This document shows, in pieces, positions 2,565 to 29,127 of a stretch of 64,000 bases of DNA. Position numbers and translations under genes: made by a program. Numbering within the stretch: the stretch's first letter is position 1; every line of letters starts with the position of its first letter. The DNA comes from Lachnospiraceae bacterium (GTDB lineage: Bacteria > Bacteroidota > Bacteroidia > Bacteroidales > UBA932). Below the pieces are notes generated by a model that saw nothing but the letters and a program-made list of their open reading frames with translations, did no database searches and was not told the DNA's origin. The stretch covers positions 14,066 to 78,065 of the forward strand of contig CAVHXU010000010.1 of the NCBI GenBank assembly GCA_963640185.1. The letters run 5' to 3'.

Positions 2565-3536
2565 TCAGTCTCCCCCGCAACTGATTGCAAGCGAGCGGGC
2601 ACAGACAAGTGCCGCATCATCGTCCGGCAGGCAGTCGAGAACGGCGACAGGGACGATGTCGGCTATCTCCGATATGGTGTCGCACATCTCATCATAGGCG
2701 GCCAGATCAAAACGGATCAGCGAACAGCCCGGAAGTATCGCCATAATCGATGAGATCTCGTCGAGGCGGCTCAGACGGTTGAATGAGGCCTGACGCAGCC
2801 GCACCATAGCCCCTACCGGATATGATTCATTGCGGTAGCAGTCCCGGCTTCCGCTCCACGGGCTTCCATAGACTCTCAGCTGATGCCGGCTCGGCACACC
2901 GGGCAGCCGAGGAGAGGAGGATGTGCCGTTGCCCGCGGGGAAAAGACGGATGACCGGGTTGTCGTCGTTGAGAAGCTCAGACCCGGGTATATTCTTGAGC
3001 CACAGACTGGAATGGGTGCTCTTGCCGGTGCCGGACTTTCCCATAAAGAGCAGGCCGCAGCGCCCGGAAGCGCCGTCTGACAATACGGATGCGGGCACCG
3101 ATATGGCAGAAGCGTGGATGGAGACCGCGGCGAACTTGATGCCTATCATCGAGAACCAGACCCTTGCCAACGAGCACAACGCATCTCCCGCACATCTGTC
3201 CGACCAGTCGGGAAGAAACTCTCCGTCTGCACAGCCGGTCCGGAGGTGGAGGCTATGCTTCGGCCCACCGGGGAACATCGCCACTTCCACGAGATAGCCG
3301 TCCGGCACAGAAAACAGGTCGCTGTGCCCCATATCGGTCTCCTGATGTTCAAGCAGTGTCCTCGATCGGAATCCCTGACCGGAGGAAAAGCAGGAGACTT
3401 CTCTCAGCGTCGGCAATGAAGTCCCGGGCTGAGACTGCTTCGGGACGGCAAAAGGCTCAAAGGAGGGCAGCAGAGGCAGGTCTTCCCTGTCCAGCAGACG
3501 AATCTCAAAATCTATGTCGGCGACTCTGTAGCGCAT
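2565..3536 (-). CDS. HPr-kinase/PEPCK-like P-loop protein
   Basis: SIHAS...LFMGKSGTGKSTHSSLW...LLNDDNPVIR...YGSPWSG motifs; ATG at 3536 overlaps the upstream stop codon (TGATG). Confidence 0.75.
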   Translation of the reverse strand: MRYRVADIDFEIRLLDREDLPLLPSFEPFAVPKQSQPGTSLPTLREVSCFSSGQGFRSRTLLEHQETDMGHSDLFSVPDGYLVEVAMFPGGPKHSLHLRTGCADGEFLPDWSDRCAGDALCSLARVWFSMIGIKFAAVSIHASAISVPASVLSDGASGRCGLLFMGKSGTGKSTHSSLWLKNIPGSELLNDDNPVIRLFPAGNGTSSSPRLPGVPSRHQLRVYGSPWSGSRDCYRNESYPVGAMVRLRQASFNRLSRLDEISSIMAILPGCSLIRFDLAAYDEMCDTISEIADIVPVAVLDCLPDDDAALVCARSLAISCGGD

Positions 3537-4729
3537 CAGAACAGTTCCCCCACGGTATGAAGCCACTCCCTCGGAGCATATTTCAGCGAAAACGGCAGAT
3601 TCCTGACAAAAGCTGCGGCAGTGTTGATGCGGCGGGACAGATGACGGGACTCCGTCGGAGCGGGCTGCTGCGCCTCGGAGACATAGCGCACCCGCGAAGC
3701 CGCGAACCGGCCGAAGTTCCCGCCCCGGCGTATGATGCGCATCAGAGTGTCCGGATTCTCCCGGAGGGAGGACCGGTACGGGAGATATTCCTGCGGAAGC
3801 CCAAGACTTTTCACCATAAAGGAGAACAGAAGGTCGTTCCAGCGGAGAAGCCCAGCCATTGAGCAGAGACTTCTGAAGTGATGAGGGTCAATGTCACCGT
3901 GGTGATACCGGCAGGCCACCGCCATATCACAGATCTGTCTGAGCCCGATGCCCAGCCCCATACAATGCTTCAGAATATGGGCACTCAGCATAAGCAGTTC
4001 AGCCTCGGGTGACGGCAGCATTATGCTCCGATCGGCAGGGGCGTCCGCCGCCGGCACTTCCTGCAATATATCGGACAGGGGCAGATCGCGCCTCGAGTCA
4101 GAGAAAGCGGACTGAATCTCCACATCCACGCCTGACAGCTCGAAATGGATCGTGCCGTCCGGGGAACGTGACAGGTCGCAGCCATTGCGCACGGCCATTT
4201 CCGCCACTTTGTCCCTATGTCCGGAGTCCGGTATGTACAGATCAATGTCTCCGCATTCGCGCTGCTCAGGCACCGGATACATCCTCGCCACGGACTGTCC
4301 TTTTTTGAGCACTGCCCGGACTCCGGATTTGCCGAACGACCTGTCAAGAGTCTGAAGCACCTTGTCCGTGAGGCGGTTGCGCCGCTCTATACCGTTCAGG
4401 GCGGCTGTCCATTCCGTGATAAGGGAGTCCTGCGGGAGGGAGGCGTCAGGGCACGACCCCTTGGCAGCCATAGTTTCCAACAATACGCTCAATCCCTGCC
4501 ACGCGACGCCTCTCACCGTCTGCCGGGAGGCAAGATCATAGACACCCTGCCAGTCAATCGGGAATTGGGCAACTGTAGCAGAGGAGAGGACGGCCGAAAA
4601 TGACTCCGCGTCCCCGGAAGTCTCCGGAAACAGGGCGAGCCTGACGAGATGGAGCAGAACCGCCTCGGTGTCCGGCGATTCCGGCTTCTTCACCCGGCAT
4701 TCCGCCGGTTTGTTCCCCGATTTCAGCAT
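3536..4729 (-). CDS. Nucleotidyltransferase family protein (NTP_transf_5-like)
   Basis: LKKGQSVARMYP..QRECGDIDLY and GIGLRQICD motifs. Confidence 0.85.
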   Translation of the reverse strand: MLKSGNKPAECRVKKPESPDTEAVLLHLVRLALFPETSGDAESFSAVLSSATVAQFPIDWQGVYDLASRQTVRGVAWQGLSVLLETMAAKGSCPDASLPQDSLITEWTAALNGIERRNRLTDKVLQTLDRSFGKSGVRAVLKKGQSVARMYPVPEQRECGDIDLYIPDSGHRDKVAEMAVRNGCDLSRSPDGTIHFELSGVDVEIQSAFSDSRRDLPLSDILQEVPAADAPADRSIMLPSPEAELLMLSAHILKHCMGLGIGLRQICDMAVACRYHHGDIDPHHFRSLCSMAGLLRWNDLLFSFMVKSLGLPQEYLPYRSSLRENPDTLMRIIRRGGNFGRFAASRVRYVSEAQQPAPTESRHLSRRINTAAAFVRNLPFSLKYAPREWLHTVGELF

Positions 4730-7010: not shown

Positions 7011-9461
7011 CTAAGAGCGGGTCAGCAGTTCTTCGTAGAGGGAGAAATACTCCGAATATCTGTCCTCCTTGCGGAACCGGTCAAGAGCATACTGCCTCAA
7101 CCGGGGGACAAAATGTTCCTTTCCGACGGATGAAATCTCCCGGAAACGCCTGTAGGCCTCAGCATAATCGCCCTGAGGAACTATATAGCCGGCATCAGGA
7201 CCTTCCTCCACCGCCTCGACGCTTCCGCCTGTGCGATAGGTGATGACAGGAGTGCCGCAGGAGATGGATTCGAGATTCACCGTAGGATAATTGTCCTGAT
7301 ATGTGAAATTAACAAATGCATCGGCAGCACTGTAAAGAGCGGCTAGTTGGGCAAGGTTTTCAGTGCGCCCGATCCCGAGAACGCCGGATGGCAGGGCGGC
7401 TCTCTGCGCTTCGCTCACCCCTACGACGACAAGGACTTCCTCCGAAAGGTTGAACAGCCCCGCGAATGCCGACAAATCATCCCAGCCCTTTTCAGCACTC
7501 CATATACTTGCCACGGCAAGGCAGATATGCCTGTCCCCGAGGGAATAGCTTTGCCGCAGAGCTGTGACCCTGTCCGGTGAAGCCGGAGCAAATGCCGAGG
7601 TGTCTATTCCATTGTGAATCACCCGGCAGCGGCAGCCTTTGAGAAACGAACGGCCGATCTCTCCGCGCATCCAGTCAGACACCGCCACAATCGTCAGCTG
7701 GCCCTCTTTCAGACTTGTAAACGCAGCCCGCTTGTCTTTCCAGTTCCGGGCAGAGCGGTCAAAAAGGAGCGATGCCGGAAACTGCCGTTTCTGGGGACAG
7801 TGCCCGCAGCCTCCTGAAGCGGAACCGTCCTGTCGCACCTGCCATTTGTAACACCCGGCAAACGCATAATGATAGCAATGCCCGGTGTAAAGCCAGCAGT
7901 CGTGCACCGTCCAGACCACAGGAATGCTGGACGAGCGTAAGTATTTGAAAAACAACGGATAATTCAGAAAATATCCGTGGATGTTGTGGAGCTGTATTAT
8001 GCTGGGAGAGATCTTTTTTATCCGGGAAATCAAACGCAGTGTCGCCAAGCCGGAGCTGAGTCCGTGGCGGTCAAAAACTCTGGTCATCAGCCCGTGACAG
8101 GCGACACTCAATCGCGAACCCACAGGCACTGCCTCCGACAGTCCGCATTCCTGCCGACGGCCTGCATCACGGCCTGCGCTGTATGCAATGTAGGATTTCC
8201 ATCCCCTGCTCACGGCCAGGTCCCCGATCTCCCGCATAATGCGTCCGGTAGAAGTGTTCCGGCGGACAACCGGATTGATCTGGAGAAGCGTGCGCTCCCG
8301 CCGCGTCAAAGAATTGAACAGTCTCATCCATTGCCCCATAATCCGCTCCTCGGAATACCGCTCCCCCACTTTTGCCGCTTCAAACGACATTTCCCTCCGC
8401 AGATCATCATCCCGCATCAGCTTTTTCATAGCCCAAGCAAGCCCCGCCACATCTCCCTCTCTGACCAGCAGGCCGTTGACTCCGTCATCGACTATATCCT
8501 TGGGACCGCATTTGCAGTCGAACGAGACTGCCGGAAGCCCGCAAGCCATCGCCTCGATCATCACCATCGGCAAACCCTCGTAATGGGAGCTCATCACGAA
8601 CAGGGAACTCGACAGGTATTCCGGGATTATGTCCGGTGTGGGAGGGTGGACGGTCATCCTGTCTTCGAGTCCATAGTCGGCAGCCATCTGCAGGAGGCGG
8701 GACTTCCATTCCCCCTGTCCGAAAATGTCCAGATGCCAGCCGCGCAGGCGTTCGTCCCCGCACACGATCCTCCAGGCATCTATCAGCCTGTCAAAGCCCT
8801 TCTGATAGTCGAGCCGGCCGACCGCCATAACCCTCTTGGGGCGTTCGCGGACAAAATCCGCAGGAGCCAGAGACGCGACAGCGGAAGTCAGAGATTCAGG
8901 GACTGCATTCGGAATCACCTCCATATCGGGAAGCTGCCCCCAATCCCCCGCATCCTCCCGGGTCAATACCACGAACTTGTCGAACTTCCTCACAAGCCGC
9001 AGGTCAGAGCTGTGCCTGAGTCTGTCCGCCAGTCCGAGCAGACCGCCCCTCGCATACTGAAGCCGGAAAAAACGCCCTTGATGCAGTTCAAGCACTTTTT
9101 TGCTCCCGTCCTTGATGTCCGGAATGAACGAAGACTCGCAGGGGAAAAGCGACACCACTATGTCCGCCTTTTCTTTCAGCAACAGCTCCGTGAGCAGACG
9201 GCGGTGTTTCCGTCGGCGTCTGAGATAGCCCAAAGTCTTGGCTATGGGGTTCTTGCCATTGTCATCGGAATAGTTCACCCCCAGATCGATCATCCTGACC
9301 CTGTCCGGAAACTCATAGAAAGGAGGTCTGCCGTGCTGGTCCGTAGTGACTACGGCCAACTCACAGTCCGTGCGCTCCGCCAGCCAGCGCAGCTTGTTCA
9401 GAGTCACTCTCTCCATCCCGCCGGGATTATAGACAGAGTGTATGCAGTAGATGATTTTCAC
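7011..9461 (-). CDS. Double glycosyltransferase: two GT4-type (GT-B) enzymes fused
   Basis: Domain 1 GGMERV...GRLDYQKG...YEGLPMVMIEAM; domain 2 LLQIN...STGRI...LHNIHG...DNYPTVNLESI. Confidence 0.88.
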   Translation of the reverse strand: MKIIYCIHSVYNPGGMERVTLNKLRWLAERTDCELAVVTTDQHGRPPFYEFPDRVRMIDLGVNYSDDNGKNPIAKTLGYLRRRRKHRRLLTELLLKEKADIVVSLFPCESSFIPDIKDGSKKVLELHQGRFFRLQYARGGLLGLADRLRHSSDLRLVRKFDKFVVLTREDAGDWGQLPDMEVIPNAVPESLTSAVASLAPADFVRERPKRVMAVGRLDYQKGFDRLIDAWRIVCGDERLRGWHLDIFGQGEWKSRLLQMAADYGLEDRMTVHPPTPDIIPEYLSSSLFVMSSHYEGLPMVMIEAMACGLPAVSFDCKCGPKDIVDDGVNGLLVREGDVAGLAWAMKKLMRDDDLRREMSFEAAKVGERYSEERIMGQWMRLFNSLTRRERTLLQINPVVRRNTSTGRIMREIGDLAVSRGWKSYIAYSAGRDAGRRQECGLSEAVPVGSRLSVACHGLMTRVFDRHGLSSGLATLRLISRIKKISPSIIQLHNIHGYFLNYPLFFKYLRSSSIPVVWTVHDCWLYTGHCYHYAFAGCYKWQVRQDGSASGGCGHCPQKRQFPASLLFDRSARNWKDKRAAFTSLKEGQLTIVAVSDWMRGEIGRSFLKGCRCRVIHNGIDTSAFAPASPDRVTALRQSYSLGDRHICLAVASIWSAEKGWDDLSAFAGLFNLSEEVLVVVGVSEAQRAALPSGVLGIGRTENLAQLAALYSAADAFVNFTYQDNYPTVNLESISCGTPVITYRTGGSVEAVEEGPDAGYIVPQGDYAEAYRRFREISSVGKEHFVPRLRQYALDRFRKEDRYSEYFSLYEELLTRS

Positions 9462-10765
9462 TCTCCGACGGGCTTATGAGTTTGCGCCTGGACTACTTCG
9501 CCGCAGAATAGCAGAGCAAAGACCAGAAAGATGTCGGTCGAGACCTTGAACCAGATTATAAAGTTGATACACAGTATCATAACAAACAGCCAGAGATAGT
9601 CAGGACAGCGGCGGATGCAATACTGGCAGGTCTTGATGAAATACAGCGTGAATGCGGCGAGCCCGATCAGACCGAAATAAAAGATAAAGCGCAGATAGCC
9701 GATGTCGGTCTGCATATAGTATCCTCTGAACAGCCTCCCCGTGTAGTATGGGTCAACCATATAGGGGTTTTCGATGTAGCCGTCGCCTATGAGCCATGTC
9801 TTCCAGTTGTCCGGGAAAACCACCATACTCTTTAGGATGTTGTTGGAATTGGTTTCCCAGTAACCTTTCTCAAATAGCGAGAAGAATCCCTCGAAACCGA
9901 AGCGCATATAGTTATGGAATATGGGATTGACATTGTAGAGCAGAACGACGAGCGGTACGGAGACGAGCAGCGTCAGAAACAGTGTCCTCGTGAAATGCCT
10001 GCTTGAAGACTGCTCCAGACCGGAACGGACAATCGGACAGACGACAGCCCACCACAGCAGCGCGACGGCGACACCGACTATTGTGGTCCGGGATATCATA
10101 TTGCCGACAACCACGATAAAAGCGAAGGAACTGAGGTACAACAGCTGCTGTTTCCAGTCAACGTCCCGTCCGTCCGGCGGCAACGTCAGAAAAGCTATCA
10201 TCGCGAGAATGACGGCAAAGCGGGACCCCGCCACATCCATCGAAGCTCCGAGTCCGTACAGGCGGTCCACTTCCTGCAATTTGTCCATATCCACGATGGC
10301 AAGTCCTGCTATGTGGGACTCCACCCAATGCTGCATAGCCGGGATGTTGTCTATCATCAGCGCGGAAGCGCACTGGAGCACGCAGACCGTTATCAGATAA
10401 TCGCACACCAGACTGACATCCATACGGCCGTGGACAAGGCGCATAAGCGACGCCACGGCATAGGCTCCCCCTAGCCAGACAAGCATGGAGATGAGGTAGG
10501 TGGCGTAGGTCGAGTCGGGCGTGCCGTTCACAATCATCGAGAAACAGCCGCAGAGGGAGACAATCGAAGCGAAAACGACCAGTTTCACGAAATCCGCGTC
10601 AAGTTCGCGGCTGCGGGTCCTGGCCATATCCACGGCATACAGCACAAGCCCCACCGCAGCAAGCATCATCTTGGTGTTGACGCTCGGCAGGAAAACGAAC
10701 TCCAGCGGGAAAAAGTAAAGGCTCGTGGCCGTTATGGTCAGCAATATGCCGATGATCTTCAACAT
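9458..10765 (-). CDS. Putative Wzy polysaccharide polymerase
   Basis: About 10-11 hydrophobic segments, large C-terminal loop with TDIGYLRFIFYFGLIG, located among GT genes. Confidence 0.7.
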   Translation of the reverse strand: MLKIIGILLTITATSLYFFPLEFVFLPSVNTKMMLAAVGLVLYAVDMARTRSRELDADFVKLVVFASIVSLCGCFSMIVNGTPDSTYATYLISMLVWLGGAYAVASLMRLVHGRMDVSLVCDYLITVCVLQCASALMIDNIPAMQHWVESHIAGLAIVDMDKLQEVDRLYGLGASMDVAGSRFAVILAMIAFLTLPPDGRDVDWKQQLLYLSSFAFIVVVGNMISRTTIVGVAVALLWWAVVCPIVRSGLEQSSSRHFTRTLFLTLLVSVPLVVLLYNVNPIFHNYMRFGFEGFFSLFEKGYWETNSNNILKSMVVFPDNWKTWLIGDGYIENPYMVDPYYTGRLFRGYYMQTDIGYLRFIFYFGLIGLAAFTLYFIKTCQYCIRRCPDYLWLFVMILCINFIIWFKVSTDIFLVFALLFCGEVVQAQTHKPVGE

Positions 10766-11766: not shown

Positions 11767-12696
11767 TTACTTTTTGCGGCCGAAAACGAAATAGCGGACC
11801 AGAATCTTTATCCGTTTCCACAGGGGAAGCCTGTCGTATTCATCAATCCGCTTATAGAAAAAGTCGAAGTAAAATTCAGGATCAAAGAAAGGAGACTTAC
11901 GATAGTACTCCCACCATATATCAAAATTTACACACCAGGTTTTCCATGGCTTGTTGCCGTTATAATGAACAATGCCGAATGCCAGCGCCCTATCAATCAT
12001 CTCTTTTGGCCATCCGACCTCTGCCACTGTCTTATCATTGAGCATCATCTTATTCAAATCCACAGTCAAACAGAAAGATGGATCCAGAGTTTTGATTTTT
12101 GAACCGGCAACGATGTTTATTATGTCCATTTCCTGAAATCTATATTTATTCTTTAAAAGCGACATAAAGCGGGACATTATTCCGTCAGATCTAATCAAGG
12201 CGGAATTTATTATCAGATTCCCATCATAAAAAATTTTGTTGGGATTCAGCCCCATTGAGTGGTAATACTTTCTTTGATCCGGATTATATCCGGCATCAGA
12301 AAGAACGCCGGCATAATAATATCCGGCTATATCCTCTTCATAAAACACAGACAAGTCTGACCGGAATATGACATCGACATCCGAATACAATATCTTGTCA
12401 TACTGCGGTATCAGTTCCGGTATCAGCAACCTGTAGTATGCTGCAGTCGTTATTCCCCTGATTTCAAATGCATTGTCAAACACATCCCCGACAGGCACAT
12501 AAGTAAGGCGACATCGGGGATAAATCTCCGGAAGGCGATCCAGATCCTTTCTCTCAAGCGGTTTCTTTTCAGAGTGAAGAATGAATATGTCGTAGAAGGT
12601 GTCCGGCTTGGCATTCATCATCAGAGAGGAGAGGCAGACACAGGCCGGCATAACAAGATTATTGTCAAAAGCAAAGGCGATAGGGACCGTGTTCAT
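11767..12696 (-). CDS. Glycosyltransferase family 8
   Basis: PIAFAFDNN, YYRLLIPELIP.YDKILYSDVDVI, IVHY.G.KPW. Confidence 0.9.
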   Translation of the reverse strand: MNTVPIAFAFDNNLVMPACVCLSSLMMNAKPDTFYDIFILHSEKKPLERKDLDRLPEIYPRCRLTYVPVGDVFDNAFEIRGITTAAYYRLLIPELIPQYDKILYSDVDVIFRSDLSVFYEEDIAGYYYAGVLSDAGYNPDQRKYYHSMGLNPNKIFYDGNLIINSALIRSDGIMSRFMSLLKNKYRFQEMDIINIVAGSKIKTLDPSFCLTVDLNKMMLNDKTVAEVGWPKEMIDRALAFGIVHYNGNKPWKTWCVNFDIWWEYYRKSPFFDPEFYFDFFYKRIDEYDRLPLWKRIKILVRYFVFGRKK

Positions 12697-13658
12697 CTCG
12701 AGATCTTGTTTACTATGGGAGGTAAGTTGCGGTAAGTGTCGGATTGCAGGAACTGCCTTGCATCCTCCAATGCCGAAAGCTTTATTTTCAATATGTCGAA
12801 TCTGAACTTCAACAGCGACGACAAAAGGGAAAATGTGACCAGATAAGCTATGCAGAGAATGTTATATGTCCGCATTGGCTTTGAAGTTTCCGGCTTTTGA
12901 ATGAACCGGTCCCAGAAAATCCTGCGAAACCATAAATCACTGTAAATGAGTCTTTGTTCCCGCTCGGAAGAGACCATTGAAGTCCCGGCATCAAGATGGA
13001 TGATACCGGAGTTGAAAAGAGTCAGCTGCTTATACCCCATCAGATATGCCTTGTAGAACATAATCTGGTCTTCTCCCAAGGCATAAGGCAATGTGTCGAG
13101 CCACGACTCATCTTCGAAGTGCAACGACAGAAACGTTTCTTTCCGACAAAAGAAACACGCACCGGCATTGGTTTGAGCCCAGCACGCATCTCTTTCAGGT
13201 TTGCGGTTATACGAAAAACCTGTTGTCCGCATCACTCTATATGCCCAACCGTCCCCTCGATGAGACTTCATTTTTCCGGACAATGCCATAAGTATTTTGA
13301 ATTTCAATGGCCTGTTGGCATTATTGAAGACATCGGGGGAGATTATATCTGCCTGATTCGCGGCCAGATTCAGAAACATCACTTCCACGGCATCCGACGG
13401 CAAGTAAACATCATCATCCAGAAACAGAATCCATTCAGTACGCACTTCACTGTAGGGCAAGGCTCTCTGCGCTACCATTCCTTTCTGCACATAGACATAT
13501 CTCTCCCTGCCGATCGTCTCTTCCGGGACGGGATACCCCTCCGCGATATAGACAATGATGTCTGACGGAGGCAAGGTCTGTGATTTAAGCGAGTCCAGCA
13601 GAGTCTGATATTTCTCGCCTGCCCGACCTAATGTACGGATTACTGCGGTGTATTCCAT
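12693..13658 (-). CDS. Glycosyltransferase family 2-like
   Basis: GT-A fold motifs LLDSL..QT, WILFLDDDV, GEDQ. Confidence 0.8.
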   Translation of the reverse strand: MEYTAVIRTLGRAGEKYQTLLDSLKSQTLPPSDIIVYIAEGYPVPEETIGRERYVYVQKGMVAQRALPYSEVRTEWILFLDDDVYLPSDAVEVMFLNLAANQADIISPDVFNNANRPLKFKILMALSGKMKSHRGDGWAYRVMRTTGFSYNRKPERDACWAQTNAGACFFCRKETFLSLHFEDESWLDTLPYALGEDQIMFYKAYLMGYKQLTLFNSGIIHLDAGTSMVSSEREQRLIYSDLWFRRIFWDRFIQKPETSKPMRTYNILCIAYLVTFSLLSSLLKFRFDILKIKLSALEDARQFLQSDTYRNLPPIVNKISR

Positions 13659-14656
13659 AATCGCGTCTTGATAGAGTTATTGACTCTGAACATAAACAAT
13701 CCCACGCGAGGAGGTACTGAAATTGTGAAAACAGCCTTGTTTATAATCTTATGTTTAAATGCCGTGTGAAAGACTCGGCATCTCAATGCCCGCAATTCCA
13801 AATCCCCTATCAATTTATCCCGCTCCTTGTAGTAATCGTCTTCAGCAAGAGTCTGAAGAGTCCAATGGTACATCATCACGCTATAGTATAGAAAATAGTG
13901 GCGTAGTGAATCGTCCTGCACCTTGCCCGCAGCCTCCTCGAAACGCTTGGACATTGCGAACGAGTCTCTCAGTTTTCTGACATCCGGTCTTGACGAGACT
14001 GAGACACCAGTTTTGCGATAGGCATAAAATGTTAATGGCAACTGCATACAGACCAGCTTCTCATTTGCGACAATCAGATGAATAAGGAAGTCCATATCCT
14101 CCAGAAAGACCTGATTTGCATTGAACTTCGGACAAATGGACTTTCTTAACAGGAGGAGAGGCAGAAAGAACTCACCTTGAACTGCGTTTTGAAGAAAAAC
14201 CGCTGGCTGAAGTGGACAATGGCAAAGATCCGCAGGAATAAGTCGCCCCCGAAAGGGTAAATCTTTCCCTTGGCCATCAACCGGCCTGTAGCAGCCCCTT
14301 ACTATATCAGCATTATGCTTGATTGCCGATTCATATAGTTTTCCCAGACTATCTTTTCCAATCCAATAATCGTCAGAATCACAAAACACCACCCACTCAC
14401 CTGTCACATTGTCCAGCCCGAGGTTGCGGGCGGAACTGACTCCGCCGTTGGCTTTGTGGAACACTCGGATGCGGGAGTCTTTTGCCGCATACTCGTCACA
14501 CAACACGCCGGAGCCGTCGGTGCTGCCATCGTCAATGACAAGGCATTCCCAGACTGAATAATTCTGTTTGAGAATGCTGTCTAGGCACCTCTGGAGATAT
14601 TTCACGGTATTATAGACCGGGACTATGATGGATATCTTCGGAGATTTTTCTGCCAT
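13640..14656 (-). CDS. Glycosyltransferase family 2
   Basis: MAEKSPKISIIVPVYN, DDGSTD, NGGVSSARN, DSDD; ATG at 14656 preferred over the GTG at 14665. Confidence 0.92.
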   Translation of the reverse strand: MAEKSPKISIIVPVYNTVKYLQRCLDSILKQNYSVWECLVIDDGSTDGSGVLCDEYAAKDSRIRVFHKANGGVSSARNLGLDNVTGEWVVFCDSDDYWIGKDSLGKLYESAIKHNADIVRGCYRPVDGQGKDLPFRGRLIPADLCHCPLQPAVFLQNAVQGEFFLPLLLLRKSICPKFNANQVFLEDMDFLIHLIVANEKLVCMQLPLTFYAYRKTGVSVSSRPDVRKLRDSFAMSKRFEEAAGKVQDDSLRHYFLYYSVMMYHWTLQTLAEDDYYKERDKLIGDLELRALRCRVFHTAFKHKIINKAVFTISVPPRVGLFMFRVNNSIKTRLWNTPQ

Positions 14657-14671
14657 ATATTTCACGAAAAT

Positions 14672-14702
14672 GTTGTGAAATCAAAAAGTTTACTTACCTT
14701 TG
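14672..14702 (+). promoter_or_regulatory. Bacteroidetes promoter antisense to the polysaccharide operon (cassette copy 1)
   Basis: GTTG - 19 nt - TACCTTTG (14695-14702), matching the TTTG-N19-21-TAnnTTTG consensus; identical in copy 2. Confidence 0.75.
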
Positions 14703-14707
14703 TCACG

Positions 14708-14803
14708 AAATTTTGGTCACCTTAGTGAGAGATAAGCGCCTCACCACTGGGAAAACAACAGAGCATATTTTTGAAAAAGAAAGTATTGCTCTGTTTTTGT
14801 TTT
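14708..14803 (+). ncRNA. Putative ~95-nt structured leader/sRNA ending in a terminator-like hairpin (copy 1)
   Basis: Stems GTGAG/CTCAC (14725-14744) and AACAGAGCA/TGCTCTGTT (14757-14795), then a T-tract; the same stems occur in copy 2 with different loops. Confidence 0.5.
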
Positions 14804-14856
14804 AGCGGGACGTAAATATAAGCCGCTCCTCGCTCTCAAATAACATTACTAAGTTT

Positions 14857-15006
14857 ATGACTAAAATTTCAATTATTCTCAGTGATAGAGAGCGCCTTGT
14901 TATTGATTTCAAGGAGACGCCTCGTAAAACAGTTCTTGTCAGAGGGCACTTTCGCAGTGTTGGAGACAAGAAAGTTTATGTCAGGACTCACTACCGCAAC
15001 AAGTAG
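14857..15006 (+). CDS. Small basic protein, 49 aa (MTKISIILSDRERLVIDFKETPRKTVLVRGHFRSVGDKKVYVRTHYRNK)
   Basis: ATG after an A/T-rich stretch, downstream of a promoter and followed by a terminator; frame preserved in the second copy; absent from the ORF track. Confidence 0.7.
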   Translation: MTKISIILSDRERLVIDFKETPRKTVLVRGHFRSVGDKKVYVRTHYRNK

Positions 15007-16029
15007 TCAGGCTTGAATCAGAGTTCGCTCTGATGCTGTTTTCCTCCCGCTGGAGAGCTGCCTTACAAGGCAGCTCTCTTTATTGATATTGAGAAGACTG
15101 TGTATCTTGGATATCAAAGGTACTGACAGCAAAGCATATCTTAAACGATAGGACAAACTGAAGTTCCGCTTGACATATCTATACGCATCTCTTATTACAG
15201 GAGAAGAATACCACCTTGAGGGATTTCTGTAAATATCGGTCTGACACAATGCCTTGAAATCACAGAAAATGGCTCTTTCGGCATCAGGACATCTGACACC
15301 CAGCTTCATATATGCCGGCAACAGACGTGAAATCGCATATTCCGATCGGTCGATGCTTTGTGCATATTTCTCCCAAAAACTTTCATACGCATCATAATAA
15401 TCATACACAACCAAAGAAGACGTACATATGTGTGACACACGACCAAGATATTCAAAATTGAACAGACGATCCTCACCCACCTTGATCTTTTCATCAAAGC
15501 GAAGAGCACCGACAAGTTCCCTGCTGTAATACTTTGCCCAAGGGGAACGAAGTATAGCTGTGTCTAGATACTTGTCGATCAGCCTATGACAATCCGGTTC
15601 ATCCGTCCCTGATTTCGATTTCCCTGTGTCAATGTCCGGCAACACGAAAACACTTGACATATTCGGCAATATGTCATTGAACGAGAACATCACCAGATCA
15701 CTGCAATAACTGTCAGGATCCGGCAAATCAGAGCACAAGCAGTCGTCAGAGTCCACGAACATCAGCCAGTTGCCGGATGCGTTGTCCAGCCCGACATTGC
15801 GCGCTGAGCTGCCCCCCCCATTCAATTTATGAAAGACTCGTATTCGGCTGTCTTTCGCGGCATACTCGTCACAGATGGCAGCAGAAGCATCTGTGCTGCC
15901 GTCATCCACAAGCAGCAGTTCCCAATCAGCATACGACTGGGAGATAATGTTGTCCAGACACTTGGTAAGTGTCTTTTCCGCATTGTAAACAGGAACTATG
16001 ATTGATATCTTCGGAGATTTTTCTGCCAT
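15007..16029 (-). CDS. Glycosyltransferase family 2 (contains a G8 tract)
   Basis: MAEKSPKISIIVPVYN, DDGSTD, NGGGSSARN, DSDD, GED; the last ~25 codons lie inside cassette copy 1. Confidence 0.92.
   Translation of the reverse strand: MAEKSPKISIIVPVYNAEKTLTKCLDNIISQSYADWELLLVDDGSTDASAAICDEYAAKDSRIRVFHKLNGGGSSARNVGLDNASGNWLMFVDSDDCLCSDLPDPDSYCSDLVMFSFNDILPNMSSVFVLPDIDTGKSKSGTDEPDCHRLIDKYLDTAILRSPWAKYYSRELVGALRFDEKIKVGEDRLFNFEYLGRVSHICTSSLVVYDYYDAYESFWEKYAQSIDRSEYAISRLLPAYMKLGVRCPDAERAIFCDFKALCQTDIYRNPSRWYSSPVIRDAYRYVKRNFSLSYRLRYALLSVPLISKIHSLLNINKESCLVRQLSSGRKTASERTLIQA
15053..15081 (+). terminator. Intrinsic terminator closing cassette copy 1
   Basis: GAGAGCTGCCT-TACA-AGGCAGCTCTC followed by TTT. 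Confidence 0.7.
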
Positions 16030-16044
16030 ATCTTTCACGAAAAT

Positions 16045-16075
16045 GTTGTGAAATCAAAAAGTTTACTTACCTTTG
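16045..16075 (+). promoter_or_regulatory. Bacteroidetes promoter antisense to the polysaccharide operon (cassette copy 2)
   Basis: GTTG - 19 nt - TACCTTTG(CA) at 16068-16075. Confidence 0.75.
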
Positions 16076-16080
16076 CAGCA

Positions 16081-16172
16081 GTGAATTTTACAAATAATGT
16101 GAGCTGAAAGCACTCACGTTAGAAGTCAATTACAGAGCATACATTCGTGAGAGTCTATGCTCTGTTTTGTTT
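16081..16172 (+). ncRNA. Putative structured leader/sRNA ending in a terminator-like hairpin (copy 2)
   Basis: Stems AATGTGAG/CTCACGTT (16096-16120) and ACAGAGCATA/TATGCTCTGT (16132-16165), then TTTGTTT. Confidence 0.5.
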
Positions 16173-16238
16173 AAGCGGGAATGTAGATTTCATTACACGC
16201 CGCTCTCCTGTCTCACTCAACATTATTTGTAAAGCATT

Positions 16239-16391
16239 ATGCAACAATTCACTAAAATCACTTTTGACGTGAGAGAGCGCCTTGTTATTGATTTCAAGGA
16301 GATGCCCCATAAAACAGTTCTTGTCAGAGGACACTTTCGCAGTGTTGGAGACAAGAAAGTTTATGTCAGGACTCACTACCGCAACAAGTAG
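16239..16391 (+). CDS. Small basic protein, 50 aa (MQQFTKITFDVRERLVIDFKEMPHKTVLVRGHFRSVGDKKVYVRTHYRNK)
   Basis: Paralogue of 14857-15006; the divergent N-terminus differs in length by exactly one codon and keeps an ATG. Confidence 0.7.
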   Translation: MQQFTKITFDVRERLVIDFKEMPHKTVLVRGHFRSVGDKKVYVRTHYRNK

Positions 16392-17574
16392 TCAGGCTTG
16401 AATCAGAGTTCGCTCTGATGCTGTTTTCCTCCCGCTGGAGAGTCGCTGCAAGGCGGCTCTCTTTGATTGGCAGGGACTTGTCAATAAACGCGAAGGCCTT
16501 GAGGCGTTCTGCGGCCAGAATACGCCGGAAACTCTCCTGCGACGGAAGATAAGACCGCGATGGGTCGTATTCCGACGGTGAGAGAATCATATTCCCGCGG
16601 CATTGGAACTTGTTCAGCAGGGAATCGAACCTGGCGAGCCCCCGGCCCTCATTTCCGATAATCACGAACGGCTTGGCAAAAATCAGCGAGAACACTGCGG
16701 CGTGAAACGAATCGGCCACGACAAAATCAGCGTCATAGAATGCCCGGAGCCAGTCTTCAAGAGGCGGCTGAATCCTTTCCCGGAGCGGAGCCTTCCGGTT
16801 CTCGTACTGAGTATTGCAGCGGAAAGCTTTCAGCGACCTCTCCGTGGAGATCCGGCCGATGAGATGCCGCGTGTCCTCCGTTTCATCCAGAATGTAGGCG
16901 AGAAGCCCCCCGCGAGGCTTGTCAGCGGGCGCGATCCCGGCAAGAGCCATATAATCGGACTTGTCCAGAAGCAGAGTCGGATCCGGAAGATGCAGGGCCT
17001 CGACTCCGAACAGCTCCCGACAGAGCCGGACGCCGCTGTCCTCACGCACGGACACGGCATCGAATCTTTGCAGCAGAGGAGCGAATGCGGCGATCTGCTC
17101 CGGAGTAAACTCGCATTTGTCCGTCCCGAAAGAAGCGGCATACGCCACTCTGCGGATATCGGCTTCAGTGCAGAAGTCCAAAAAGCAGCGGGCGATCATT
17201 CCGCTGCCATTGTATTCCGGCCTCCACACCTGATCGCTGCCCACGACCACCGCATCCAAACCGGACACGCACTTCGGACCCCAACGTCTGACATACCTTT
17301 TGTCAAACCTGTCATCGACAAACTTCAGCAATCTGCGGCAGGCTATTTTCCTGGAAAGTTCGTAGAACACCGGTATATCCTTGCCGACGACATATTTGAG
17401 TATCGTCCGCTTGCAGATGTTGATCAATTCTCGCCAGGGATGCTCCAGCCGGCTGTACCAGTCAAACAGCACGACCCGGTGTCCCCTGCGTTCAAGAACG
17501 GTCTTCAGGGCATAAGCCTGCAATATCCCGCCGTAATTATGCCCCAAAGGCTGTGTCAGCAGTCCTATCTTCAT
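16366..17574 (-). CDS. Polysaccharide pyruvyl transferase family protein
   Basis: MKIGLLT...NYGGILQAYAL, VGSDQVW, YAASFG, SVREDSG, DPTLLL, DSFHA; real start taken at 17574. Confidence 0.92.
   Translation of the reverse strand: MKIGLLTQPLGHNYGGILQAYALKTVLERRGHRVVLFDWYSRLEHPWRELINICKRTILKYVVGKDIPVFYELSRKIACRRLLKFVDDRFDKRYVRRWGPKCVSGLDAVVVGSDQVWRPEYNGSGMIARCFLDFCTEADIRRVAYAASFGTDKCEFTPEQIAAFAPLLQRFDAVSVREDSGVRLCRELFGVEALHLPDPTLLLDKSDYMALAGIAPADKPRGGLLAYILDETEDTRHLIGRISTERSLKAFRCNTQYENRKAPLRERIQPPLEDWLRAFYDADFVVADSFHAAVFSLIFAKPFVIIGNEGRGLARFDSLLNKFQCRGNMILSPSEYDPSRSYLPSQESFRRILAAERLKAFAFIDKSLPIKESRLAATLQREENSIRANSDSSLTTCCGSES
16438..16464 (+). terminator. Intrinsic terminator closing cassette copy 2
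   Basis: GAGAGTCGCT-GCAA-GGCGGCTCTC-TTT; GNRA loop and two G-U pairs that form only on the + strand. Confidence 0.7.
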
Positions 17575-27724: not shown

Positions 27725-27783
27725 CCCTCCCAAAATTCGTGGACAGATTTGACTGCTTGCAACCACGGGAAAAAATGCTAAAT

Positions 27784-29127
27784 ATGGAAAAATATCTTTT
27801 TACATCGGAATCAGTTTCCGAAGGTCACCCGGACAAGGTCTCAGACCAGATTTCAGACGCCATCCTTGATGAATTTTTAAGACAGGACCCCGAAGCGAAG
27901 GTCGCCTGCGAGACGTTCTGCAGCACAGGACTTGTGATTGTGGGCGGCGAGGTGCGCTCGGACGACGCCTATGTCGATATCCCGCATACTGTCCGCAGAG
28001 TCATAGACCGGATAGGCTACAACAAGGCGGAATACCGCTTCGACAGCAATTCCTGCGGCATACTGAGCGCGGTACACGAACAGAGCGCCGACATCAACAG
28101 AGGAGTGGACAGGGATGTCGCCGCCGGAGAGGACGCGGCGGATGCTCAGGGAGCCGGAGACCAGGGAATGATGTTCGGCTACGCCTGCCGCGACACCGAG
28201 GAATATATGCCTCTGCCGCTGTCCCTTTCGCATCTGGCGCTTAGAACTCTCGCAGACATACGCCGGGAGGGAGTCGTCCCCTATCTCAGGCCGGACGCCA
28301 AGTCCCAGTTTACCGTCGAATACGAAGCCGGCGGCAACAGGCCGCTCAGGGTGCACACCATAGTCATTTCCACCCAGCACGACGAGTTTCTCGACGACGA
28401 TGAGGCGATGCAGAGGAAGATACGCGAGGATGTGAAGAACGTGCTGCTGCCGAGGATGCTGAAATCGCTTCCGGAGCGGACGGCCGCGCTGTTCAAGGGG
28501 GAATATGATGCCGCGGACAACCCGGAGGGCTACATCCTCCACGTCAACCCGACCGGCAAGTTCGTCATCGGAGGTCCCCACGGGGACACCGGACTCACGG
28601 GGCGCAAGATCATAGTGGACACCTACGGGGGAAAGGGAGCGCACGGCGGCGGAGCCTTCTCGGGCAAGGATCCGTCCAAGGTGGACCGTTCGGCAGCCTA
28701 TGCGGCGCGTCACATCGCCAAAAATATGGTGGCGGCCGGCGTGGCGGACGAGATGCTGGTGCAGATTTCCTACGCCATCGGCGTGGCCCGTCCGGTGAGT
28801 GTCTTCGTGGACACCTACGGTTCGGCCGCGATTGACCGCAGCGGAGTGCAGGGCGAAGGACGCAGGGGGCAGAAGTTCAGCGACGCCTTCATAGCATCCA
28901 AGGTCAACGAACTGTTCGACCTCAGACCCGCCAGGATCATAGAGAGATTCGGTCTGAAAAAGCCCATCTACGAGCCTACGGCAGCCTACGGACACGTCGG
29001 CAGGAAGCCGTACAAGGCCGAAGTGGAGCTTGTACGCCACGGAGTGCGCAGCCGCGAGACCGTGCAGTTCTTCGGCTGGGAGCTGCTGGACAGCGTGGAT
29101 CAGGTGAAGAAAGCGTTCGGGCTATAG
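27784..29127 (+). CDS. metK: S-adenosylmethionine synthetase
   Basis: [29 protein letters not shown]; start placed downstream of the promoter. Confidence 0.98.

Follow-up and report, generated by a model that had tools for sequence, protein, structure and literature searches.

A cassette that occurs twice, as direct repeats, in a polysaccharide locus of a Bacteroidales genome assembly (GCA_963640185.1) was examined by comparative genomics and RNA structure prediction. The window, that is, the whole 64,000-nucleotide stretch analyzed, carries copy 1 at 14622-15081 and copy 2 at 15995-16464. Both copies lie at gene junctions of a minus-strand polysaccharide locus, GT2|GT2 and GT2|pyruvyltransferase, respectively (GT, glycosyltransferase). 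Each reads on the plus strand as a promoter, a leader of ~150 nt, an ATG-initiated open reading frame (ORF) of 49 or 50 codons, a UUCG hairpin, and a GC-rich terminator, and both leaders contain a terminator-like stem, a hairpin followed by a U run. An earlier reading made from the sequence alone had described the repeats, their position, and this plus-strand organization, and all were confirmed. We favor, with a probability of about 0.58, the interpretation that the cassette is a type I-like toxin-antitoxin (TA) module with a type III layout, rather than a regulator of capsule genes. Each repeat would be a self-contained TA-like module with one housekeeping promoter. The cassette is real and uncatalogued, and its regulatory logic is strongly supported by covariation among its relatives; the toxin function of its peptide we infer.

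The two copies (BLASTN of one against the other, E = 4e-112) are the only ones in the 1.97-Mb assembly. Their similarity is a mosaic, with 97.5% identity over the GT start and promoter (14622-14702), 64.8% from the inferred transcription start to codon 10 (14703-14886), and 97.7% from codon 10 to the terminator (14887-15057). The diverged block corresponds exactly to the interval from the antisense seed to its target described below.

The leader is complementary to the start of its own ORF

In all full cassettes the RNA lies upstream of the ORF under the same promoter, with an intrinsic terminator in between. All cassette features described here are on the plus strand. Promoters of the Bacteroidota -33/-7 type (consensus as given in the accessible part of PMC7366714) are predicted from sequence at 14672..14702 in copy 1 and 16045..16075 in copy 2, where they have the same sequence, a -33 GTTG separated by N19 from a -7 box (GTTG-N19-TACCTTTG). 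The -7 box was perfect in 86 of 99 cassette units, these having been chosen for a promoter-like box. Judged from the -7 box and the U run, copy 1 is predicted to give a short RNA of ~95 nt (14707..14802), a putative antitoxin consisting of a 5' seed, hairpin H1, and terminator H2. The counterpart in copy 2 spans 16080..16172 (seed 16080-16103, H1 16099-16117, H2 16132-16172). The family RNA model R1 matches the copy 1 short RNA at E = 9e-8, partly by construction.

Beginning after the -7 box, the first ~20 nt form an antisense sequence to the AUG and opening codons of the ORF that they precede. In copy 1 (seed 14707..14731), 14707-14719 pairs with 14858-14870, covering the AUG and codons 2-5, through 12 Watson-Crick pairs and one GU. 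This helix also forms in the predicted read-through fold, and 14721-14731 is complementary to the region upstream of the AUG. The copy 2 seed pairs with 16216-16233 and 16246-16253. Complementarity was measured across the family in 55 of 56 representatives of 90% identity clusters (one frameshifted copy was dropped, one promoter call was corrected by hand, and six loci without a called box had been removed earlier). The longest Watson-Crick run between seed and target had a median of 12 and was at least 8 in 51 of 55 cassettes; that length was reached by 10.3% of non-cognate pairs, by 3.7% when seeds were shuffled, and by 2 of 55 in a linker control. The cognate target ranked first for 38 of the 55 seeds and in the top three for 50; with the target widened to -30..+27 these counts were 42 and 53. 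Cofolding with competing structure (n = 45) gave means of -11.7 kcal/mol for cognate, -4.9 for non-cognate, and -5.1 for shuffled combinations. The window copies are orthogonal, with cognate energies of -21.4 (copy 1) and -22.0 (copy 2) against -7.2 and -6.8 kcal/mol for the crossed pairs, although for copy 2 the preference disappears once mRNA self-structure is counted (-4.5 cognate versus -4.4 crossed). In all 18 pairs of cassettes whose peptide-and-3' part is at least 90% identical, the seed-target block was more diverged (64-87%). By these comparisons the short RNA would base-pair in a cognate-specific manner with the start of its own putative toxin message, and repression itself is a prediction. 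The RNA-control logic very probably holds. The sequence-only reading had noticed the internal terminator as a detail of the leader; the terminator is present, and it is instead the center of the system because it delimits a separate short RNA whose 5' end targets the ORF start.

Covariation was also found in the remaining RNA structure. In 26 aligned cassettes, 88.5% of the cells of a five-helix named structure were paired and 29 of 40 pairs had two-sided changes. None of 500 shuffles scored as high and slid controls reached 37-49%, but kinship among the sequences inflates such permutation statistics, to the detriment of our interpretation, and the compensatory changes weigh more. H2 (14758..14802 in copy 1, including the U run on its sense side) delimits short RNAs of ~80-100 nt and had two-sided changes at 13 of 13 pairs in 54 sequences (7 of 8 pairs in the 26-cassette structure). 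A long-distance helix joins segment B, just after H2, to segment B' near the 3' end (14804..14810 with 15045..15051 in copy 1; 16174..16180 with 16430-16436 in copy 2). It had two-sided changes at 7 of 9 pairs (26 sequences), and cognate B-B' duplexes averaged -14.9 kcal/mol against -11.4 when permuted, the cognate ranking first for copy 1. Two-sided changes were also present at 9 of 10 pairs of the final terminator (15053..15083; 16438-16461 in copy 2), the stem of which differs between the copies by compensatory changes, and at 5 of 8 pairs of a hairpin inside the ORF. Segment d, which together with this hairpin occupies 14888..14914, pairs with the leader segment c (14823-14838); the c-d core is nearly invariant (two-sided change at 1 of 5 pairs) and hence has little covariation support. 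The arms of H1 (14725..14744) resemble the c/d stem of the mRNA, and its 20-mer recurs in the relatives L005, L026, L080, and L088 and in an ORF-less unit of locus L119; H1 is absent from the RNAalifold consensus. The UUCG hairpin (15017..15034, and 16402-16419 within the copy 2 3' end, 16402..16466) occurs in some lineages only. Relative to dinucleotide shuffles, folding z scores were -2.8 and -4.7 for the two leaders and -3.4 and -1.4 for the 3' ends. Neither repeat had a match above the gathering threshold in Rfam 15, including its Bacteroides-1 and Bacteroidales motifs; the best sub-threshold matches, at 16-22 bits, fell far short.

Possible action in cis and in trans

When 40 cassettes were folded (separately from the window copies), the 5'-to-start helix appeared in 33 of the nascent transcripts, and the seed can therefore be predicted to act in cis. 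Among full read-through RNAs the end-to-end helix formed in only 9 of 40, whereas deletion of everything up to H2 raised this number to 36. Action in trans is indicated by three further results. In the predicted fold of the terminated RNA, most of the seed is single-stranded (mean 0.66, n = 37). Promoter-RNA-terminator units without an intact ORF exist, 16 distinct ones alongside the 99 cassette units, and 14 of the 16 have a perfect -7 box (selection was biased toward promoter-like boxes, and three of the 16 represent truncated cassettes). L133 and L138 each contain an intact ORF that its own leader fails to match (-9.7) but that is matched by an RNA gene no more than 1 kb away, an orphan (-18.9) in one case and a neighboring cassette (-22.1) in another; both loci are metagenome assemblies of repeat arrays and possibly chimeric, which lessens what they lend to the TA interpretation. 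At L119:2456-3690, tandem promoter-short RNA-terminator units of differing sequence types surround one intact ORF. Four of these units match the model, one of them an ORF-deleted cassette, and a fifth is more distant; the array looks like an orphan-antitoxin library.

Alternatively, the seed might act in cis only, as the metastable or locking helix of a hok/aapA-type mRNA, with H2 serving as an attenuator or an antisense terminator and an undetected antisense RNA as the antitoxin. Long-distance 5'-3' pairing and co-transcriptional start-site helices do mark aapA and hok mRNAs (in the accessible parts of PMC5416894 and PMC6733600), the copy 1 H2 is followed by U-rich sequence on either strand, and copy 2 has one near-consensus antisense promoter-like site. 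However, a conserved antisense promoter was not found in a scan for housekeeping -33/-7 sites, which other promoter types would escape: such sites occurred, scattered, in just 8 of 47 cassettes, that of copy 2 being one. On the sense strand the U run is much the stronger, and of the cassette the orphan units retain just the sense promoter and the sequence as far as H2. In silico trimming of the 3' end, moreover, gave no opening of the start region, with upstream accessibility higher in 2 and lower in 4-5 of 40 cassettes, so that activation of the aapA kind is not predicted. We regard this cis-only alternative as rather unlikely.

The encoded peptide

The ORFs at 14857..15006 (copy 1, 49 aa, putative toxin) and 16239..16391 (copy 2, 50 aa) belong to a set of 86 distinct ORF hits, 75 of them intact, 4 cut by contig ends, and 7 broken. 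The ratio of nonsynonymous to synonymous substitution rates was 0.27 in the N-terminal half and 0.19 in the C-terminal half for pairs 75-99.5% identical, an estimate that indicates purifying selection on the peptide. Net charge has a median of +9 among the 74 distinct peptides. The motif VRGHFR-x3-G-x-K-x-YV-x2-HYR is a predicted beta-hairpin (residues 26-49 in copy 2). AlphaFold2, run on the copy 2 peptide with 82 sequences, gave predicted local distance difference test scores of 89-94 for residues 31-50 and about 55 for residues 1-20. Because the peptide is strongly basic, the short RNA might additionally bind it.

No family match was obtained in Pfam, NCBIfam, PHROG, PADLOC, or PDB sequences. 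A glucansucrase match at E 0.02 was dismissed as it covers 14 residues, and a WYL match (one of 82 members, E 0.009) was taken as chance. Foldseek returned matches only at E > 3, and a wide structural search, uninformative for a 24-residue hairpin, gave none at Z of 2 or more. Three unnamed ESM Atlas clusters of 47-48-aa hypothetical proteins were found and no named cluster; of the 138 homologues, the 120 that were listed were all unnamed or 'hypothetical'. A zinc finger (CxxC with two histidines) was rejected, since the window peptides and the LTIVC subfamily lack CxxC and the codons concerned lie within an RNA hairpin. The hairpin motif also ends the unrelated larger proteins P0029, P0030, P0035, P0037, and P0038, one of which is SH3-like and probably secreted, and it may be a reusable basic domain.

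A peptide of this kind could be non-toxic, a dispensable basic protein that binds RNA, ribosomes, or the nucleoid, is under the same RNA control, and is released under stress. Its charge of +9, the confidently predicted beta-hairpin, the absence of a membrane helix, and the similar C-terminal motif of larger, probably secreted proteins such as P0037 would suit such a role. Against this stand the fast divergence of the seed-target block, the copies that have lost the peptide and keep the RNA (L041, L128, and L119), and a patchy presence (53 of 300 genomes, see below) with several orthogonal paralogues per locus, all of which fit addiction and immunity better. The relics and the patchiness are indirect signs of toxicity, and a harmless peptide appears unlikely, if somewhat less so than the cis-only scheme.

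Distribution and genomic neighborhoods

Relatives of the window peptide were present in 5 of 36 genomes of the genus. With a 10-sequence profile, matches at E 1e-3 were obtained in 53 of 300 genus genomes, a single genome having as many as four; for this count 30 loci were fetched and the weak tail was left uninspected. In a GTDB scan 93 of 118 stretches were confirmed and 79 loci returned, their titles mostly Ca. Cryptobacteroides, Ca. Egerieisoma, Ca. Coprenecus, or uncultured Bacteroidales. In a scan of metagenomes, 140 of 176 were confirmed and 78 loci obtained. The promoter-leader-ORF-terminator order is conserved in nearly all relatives. None of 400 other genomes of the order Bacteroidales matched at E 1e-4, and the family is therefore narrow; order-wide matches at E 0.02 came from 6 of 300 genomes and five were judged spurious on inspection. 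A viral-contig match, L012, was dropped because only 12 residues matched, without a cassette.

A model of the short RNA only had matches in 6 of 100 family genomes, L127 among them. L127 has the same cassette layout and an end-to-end helix, with a peptide only 22-28% identical to window-type peptides. In another Bacteroidales family, L226 (G655:C54, ~9440-9780, minus strand) encodes a minimal hairpin peptide with its own promoter, a different leader, and a perfect 13-bp 5'-3' pairing, and is a candidate sister type I-like family. Because of L127 and L226, the peptide superfamily may be wider than the cassette described here.

Neighbors were tabulated for 195 relative loci (a redundant set with 1.5-3 kb of flank each). 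Seventy had hsdM, 39 had hsdS, and 14 had fimbrillin-like genes as neighbors, while many other copies lay between unrelated housekeeping genes; at L038:1994-2797 the cassette adjoins a cas1 gene. Within these flanks, GT2, GT4, GT8, pyruvyltransferase, or flippase neighbors like those of the window were found at 0 of 195 loci. Where it occupies hsdM|hsdS junctions or fimbrillin arrays, the cassette is antisense in the operon and abuts the start of the variable gene, as in the window. The hsdM|hsdS subfamily, in type I restriction-modification loci (L011, L017, L019, L021-L023, L027, L030, L032, and 60 more), is antisense with its promoter ~20 nt from the hsdS start, and could stabilize specificity subunits or aid their exchange.

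This placement bears on two further explanations. The first, that the cassette regulates the downstream GT genes by antisense transcription or polymerase collision, draws on its antisense position within operons (in the window as at the hsdM|hsdS junctions and fimbrillin arrays), on a promoter 16 nt from the GT start codon, and on the convergent orientation of the nearest downstream gene with a Pfam hit at 26 of 30 loci (a hand count that includes related loci). However, the 195 relative loci lack GT-type neighbors, every covarying helix concerns the cassette's own ORF, two terminators confine sense transcription, and the promoter is directed away from the abutting GT gene. We consider such a regulator highly improbable, although a side effect on the GT operon is conceivable. 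Of the functions proposed by the sequence-only reading, the RNA-regulated small-protein module with its type I analogy gained from the seed covariation and orthogonality, whereas the tuning of read-through into GT genes found no support as the main role, given the 0 of 195 count and the many copies between housekeeping genes.

The second explanation is that the repeat is a recombination linker or selfish repeat that swaps variable genes (GT, hsdS, and fimbrillin), with the peptide and RNA as passengers. In the window, as in L044, L133, L137, and L138, copies and variable genes do alternate, near-identical flanks enclose a diverged block, and 39 of the 195 loci lie beside hsdS. Most genomes, however, have single copies at unrelated sites, and neither a recombinase nor terminal repeats were seen. 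In the window, as had been noted earlier, no transposase or integrase domain was detected in the 13 long neighboring ORFs to which the scan was limited, and the repeat ends carry no long inverted repeat. The seed-target covariation and the purifying selection on the peptide, in addition, demand a function of the cassette's own. The linker explanation appears improbable, though not quite as much so as the GT regulator.

Two features of the surrounding DNA were also observed. In fimbrillin-like arrays, a ~130-bp palindromic element and, upstream, short tandem repeats precede each cassette copy (L041:2560-2650 and 3270-3380; L044:250-445; L138:2300-2650 and 3330-3700); the element is possibly a miniature inverted-repeat transposable element-like or repetitive extragenic palindrome-like repeat that drives array rearrangement. 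On the antisense strand, a frame is open across nearly the whole cassette (at least 140 codons) in 10 of 56 representatives, many of the ten being related, compared with 0.2% in crude shuffles. These include L002, L024, L042, L044, and L095, with ORFs of 210-360 aa in the fimbrillin clade; selection that keeps read-through of the host operon translated may be the reason.

Proposed mode of action

In the TA model that we favor, most transcripts would end at the internal terminator as RNAs of ~90 nt whose 5' seed is unpaired; covariation supports the terminator and the seed, and transcription is assumed. Occasional read-through would produce the peptide mRNA, in which, according to the predicted folds, the attached seed would fold on the start region in cis and prevent co-transcriptional translation. 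In a second fold, the helices of which covary, H1 and H2 would be self-closed, B-B' and c-d paired, and the start more open. This fold should be favored after removal of the 5' part, the presumed activation step. Excess short RNA would pair in trans over the AUG and first codons and keep the peptide off, as we infer from the seed specificity, the orphan RNA genes, and the mismatched cassettes covered by a neighbor. If the locus were lost or its transcription stopped, the short RNA might decay first, the cationic beta-hairpin peptide would be made, and growth would arrest; this is the least supported step. The peptide would probably bind RNA, ribosomes, or DNA rather than form pores. The module would stabilize the labile DNA around it (hsdS, fimbrillin, and here GT genes), and the seed-target block would diversify so that paralogues stay orthogonal, being exchanged by recombination between the conserved flanks.

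Several results weigh against this model. The hydrophobic transmembrane helix that characterizes type I toxins is missing from the 74 peptides (Kyte-Doolittle means over 19 residues reach 1.21 at most, with a median of 0.12), and no toxic relative of the peptide is known. No convincing copy was found on plasmids or phages (phage and plasmid collections searched with one peptide each, and viral contigs). Tested for a match among the starts of 88 known ORFs, only 5 of the 13 orphan seeds outscored each of 40 shuffles, and of these five, two are truncated cassettes and two are near-duplicates; another five of the 13 performed at chance level. No mechanism that removes the 5' part was found, and a second sense promoter before B was not conserved in the 47 cassettes scanned. 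The predicted opening on 5' removal is modest, with the unpaired fraction of the start region rising from 0.40 to 0.57 and a gain of more than 0.1 in only 19 of 37 cassettes, and the start of copy 2 is predicted to be open even with its 5' part attached.

Comparison with described RNA antitoxin systems

AapA and Hok are hydrophobic membrane peptides, and type I toxins, as described by Fozo in 2010, are reportedly small and hydrophobic. The cassette peptide, a beta-hairpin of charge +9, is unlike AapA and Hok. In other respects the cassette resembles aapA/IsoA of Helicobacter pylori and hok/Sok, which, in the accessible parts of PMC5416894 and PMC6733600, have a 30- to 50-codon ORF equipped with a promoter and terminator of its own, a 5'-3' long-distance helix, and co-transcriptional start-region helices. 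They also have an RNA of ~80-90 nt that pairs with the toxin message, and several chromosomal paralogues, each with its own specificity. As far as those parts go, IsoA is transcribed from the opposite strand, whereas in the cassette the RNA that pairs is the 5' leader itself, terminated early and made from the promoter of the ORF, and removal of 3' nucleotides activates aapA but is not predicted to open the cassette mRNA.

The cassette also differs from type III systems in having no repeated motif, no Rfam match, a 5' end that covaries with the mRNA start, and a 50-aa product. Searches of Pfam, NCBIfam, and PADLOC gave no indication that the peptide belongs to the ToxN/AbiF family. Type III toxins such as those of ToxIN and AbiF are RNases. 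What the cassette shares with AbiF/RCd22 of Clostridioides difficile (bioRxiv 10.1101/2025.04.15.648962) and ToxIN (PMC8040213), to the extent that these sources were accessible, is a single promoter and an RNA of ~100 nt. In both systems, as is predicted for the cassette, the abundant RNA ends at an intrinsic terminator, rarer read-through reaches the toxin, and the RNA acts in cis and in trans; in the two described systems, however, it binds the toxin protein via repeated motifs, and the toxin is much larger.

Seven putative type I TA pairs have been reported in Bacteroides thetaiotaomicron (PMC7366714, accessible in part). They come from the same order and have paralogous small RNAs and candidate small ORFs, but their transcripts, of 73-221 nt, overlap on opposite strands near transposases, and the four linked small ORFs that we looked up have 7 codons and are unrelated to the cassette peptide. 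The accessible part of PMC10994844 added nothing further. Three motifs were absent from the searchable supplements of the structured-RNA catalogue of Fremin and Bhatt (PMC8040213), of which files 7 and 8 may hold the motif. No description of the cassette, or of a base-pairing antitoxin from the toxin's own promoter, was found in the literature within reach, which left out most subscription papers.

Prematurely terminated leaders that pair with mRNA in trans are represented by Listeria SreA/SreB and Sinorhizobium rnTrpL, which are riboswitch or attenuator products aimed at other genes. In the cassette, by contrast, the target is the leader's own downstream ORF and the seeds are paralogue-specific. 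We file the cassette as a variant of RNA-antitoxin systems that lies outside the aapA/hok and type III families. More tentatively, and at somewhat less than even odds, it could represent a new class of RNA TA systems. In such a class a single promoter would make both partners, the antitoxin would be the toxin gene's own prematurely terminated leader with a reprogrammable 5' seed directed at the start codon, seeds and targets would have diverged into many orthogonal specificities, and the orphan RNA arrays would be a library of acquired immunity against incoming cassettes. Its toxin would belong to a new non-membrane cationic beta-hairpin family with L127 and L226 as distant relatives.

If the TA interpretation is correct, type I pairing and a type III layout are joined in one module, and gut Bacteroidales have a candidate RNA-antitoxin family whose logic can be read from sequence. 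The phylum seldom uses Shine-Dalgarno pairing, and the cassette would provide a natural case there of translational repression in which the AUG and first codons are masked. Its orthogonal seed-target pairs, which number in the dozens, constitute a riboregulator toolkit for Bacteroides, and they make it testable how hypervariable loci (restriction specificity, fimbriae, and capsule) stay in place.

The cassettes and the surrounding polysaccharide genes

The left ~35 bases of the repeat are the first codons of the downstream minus-strand GT2 gene. For copy 1 this gene occupies 13640..14656 (PF00535), its opening codons making the left end of the repeat. Its product is 72% identical to that of the next GT2 gene, which lies between the copies (15007..16029, minus strand), with the identity confined to the first 96 aa. 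The frame of the second GT2 gene enters the copy 1 terminator, and that of a polysaccharide pyruvyltransferase gene (PF04230; 16366..17571, minus strand, start approximate) crosses the 3' end of copy 2. Both of these upstream minus-strand ORFs thus extend 75-100 nt into a cassette 3' end and stop inside the cassette (15007-15083 and 16366-16466), which gives their products added C-terminal tails; the pyruvyltransferase frame overlaps the final codons of peptide 2.

The GT block that contains the cassettes (11800-16600) has 38-51% G+C, below the 55% of the genome as a whole, and lacks a syntenic counterpart in 300 genus genomes, which is consistent with recent acquisition. An empty orthologous site for the cassette was likewise not found in these 300 genomes. 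Since the duplicated unit takes in the conserved GT2 start, the arrangement suggests that GT-plus-cassette units were duplicated or exchanged by homologous recombination and may then have been kept by addiction. Elsewhere in the window, a SAM-II (long loop) riboswitch, RF01726, lies at 27733-27791 on the plus strand (63 bits) and is the sole Rfam match of the window, and an 816-aa ORF at 7011-9461 (minus strand) contains two GT4 modules in one frame.

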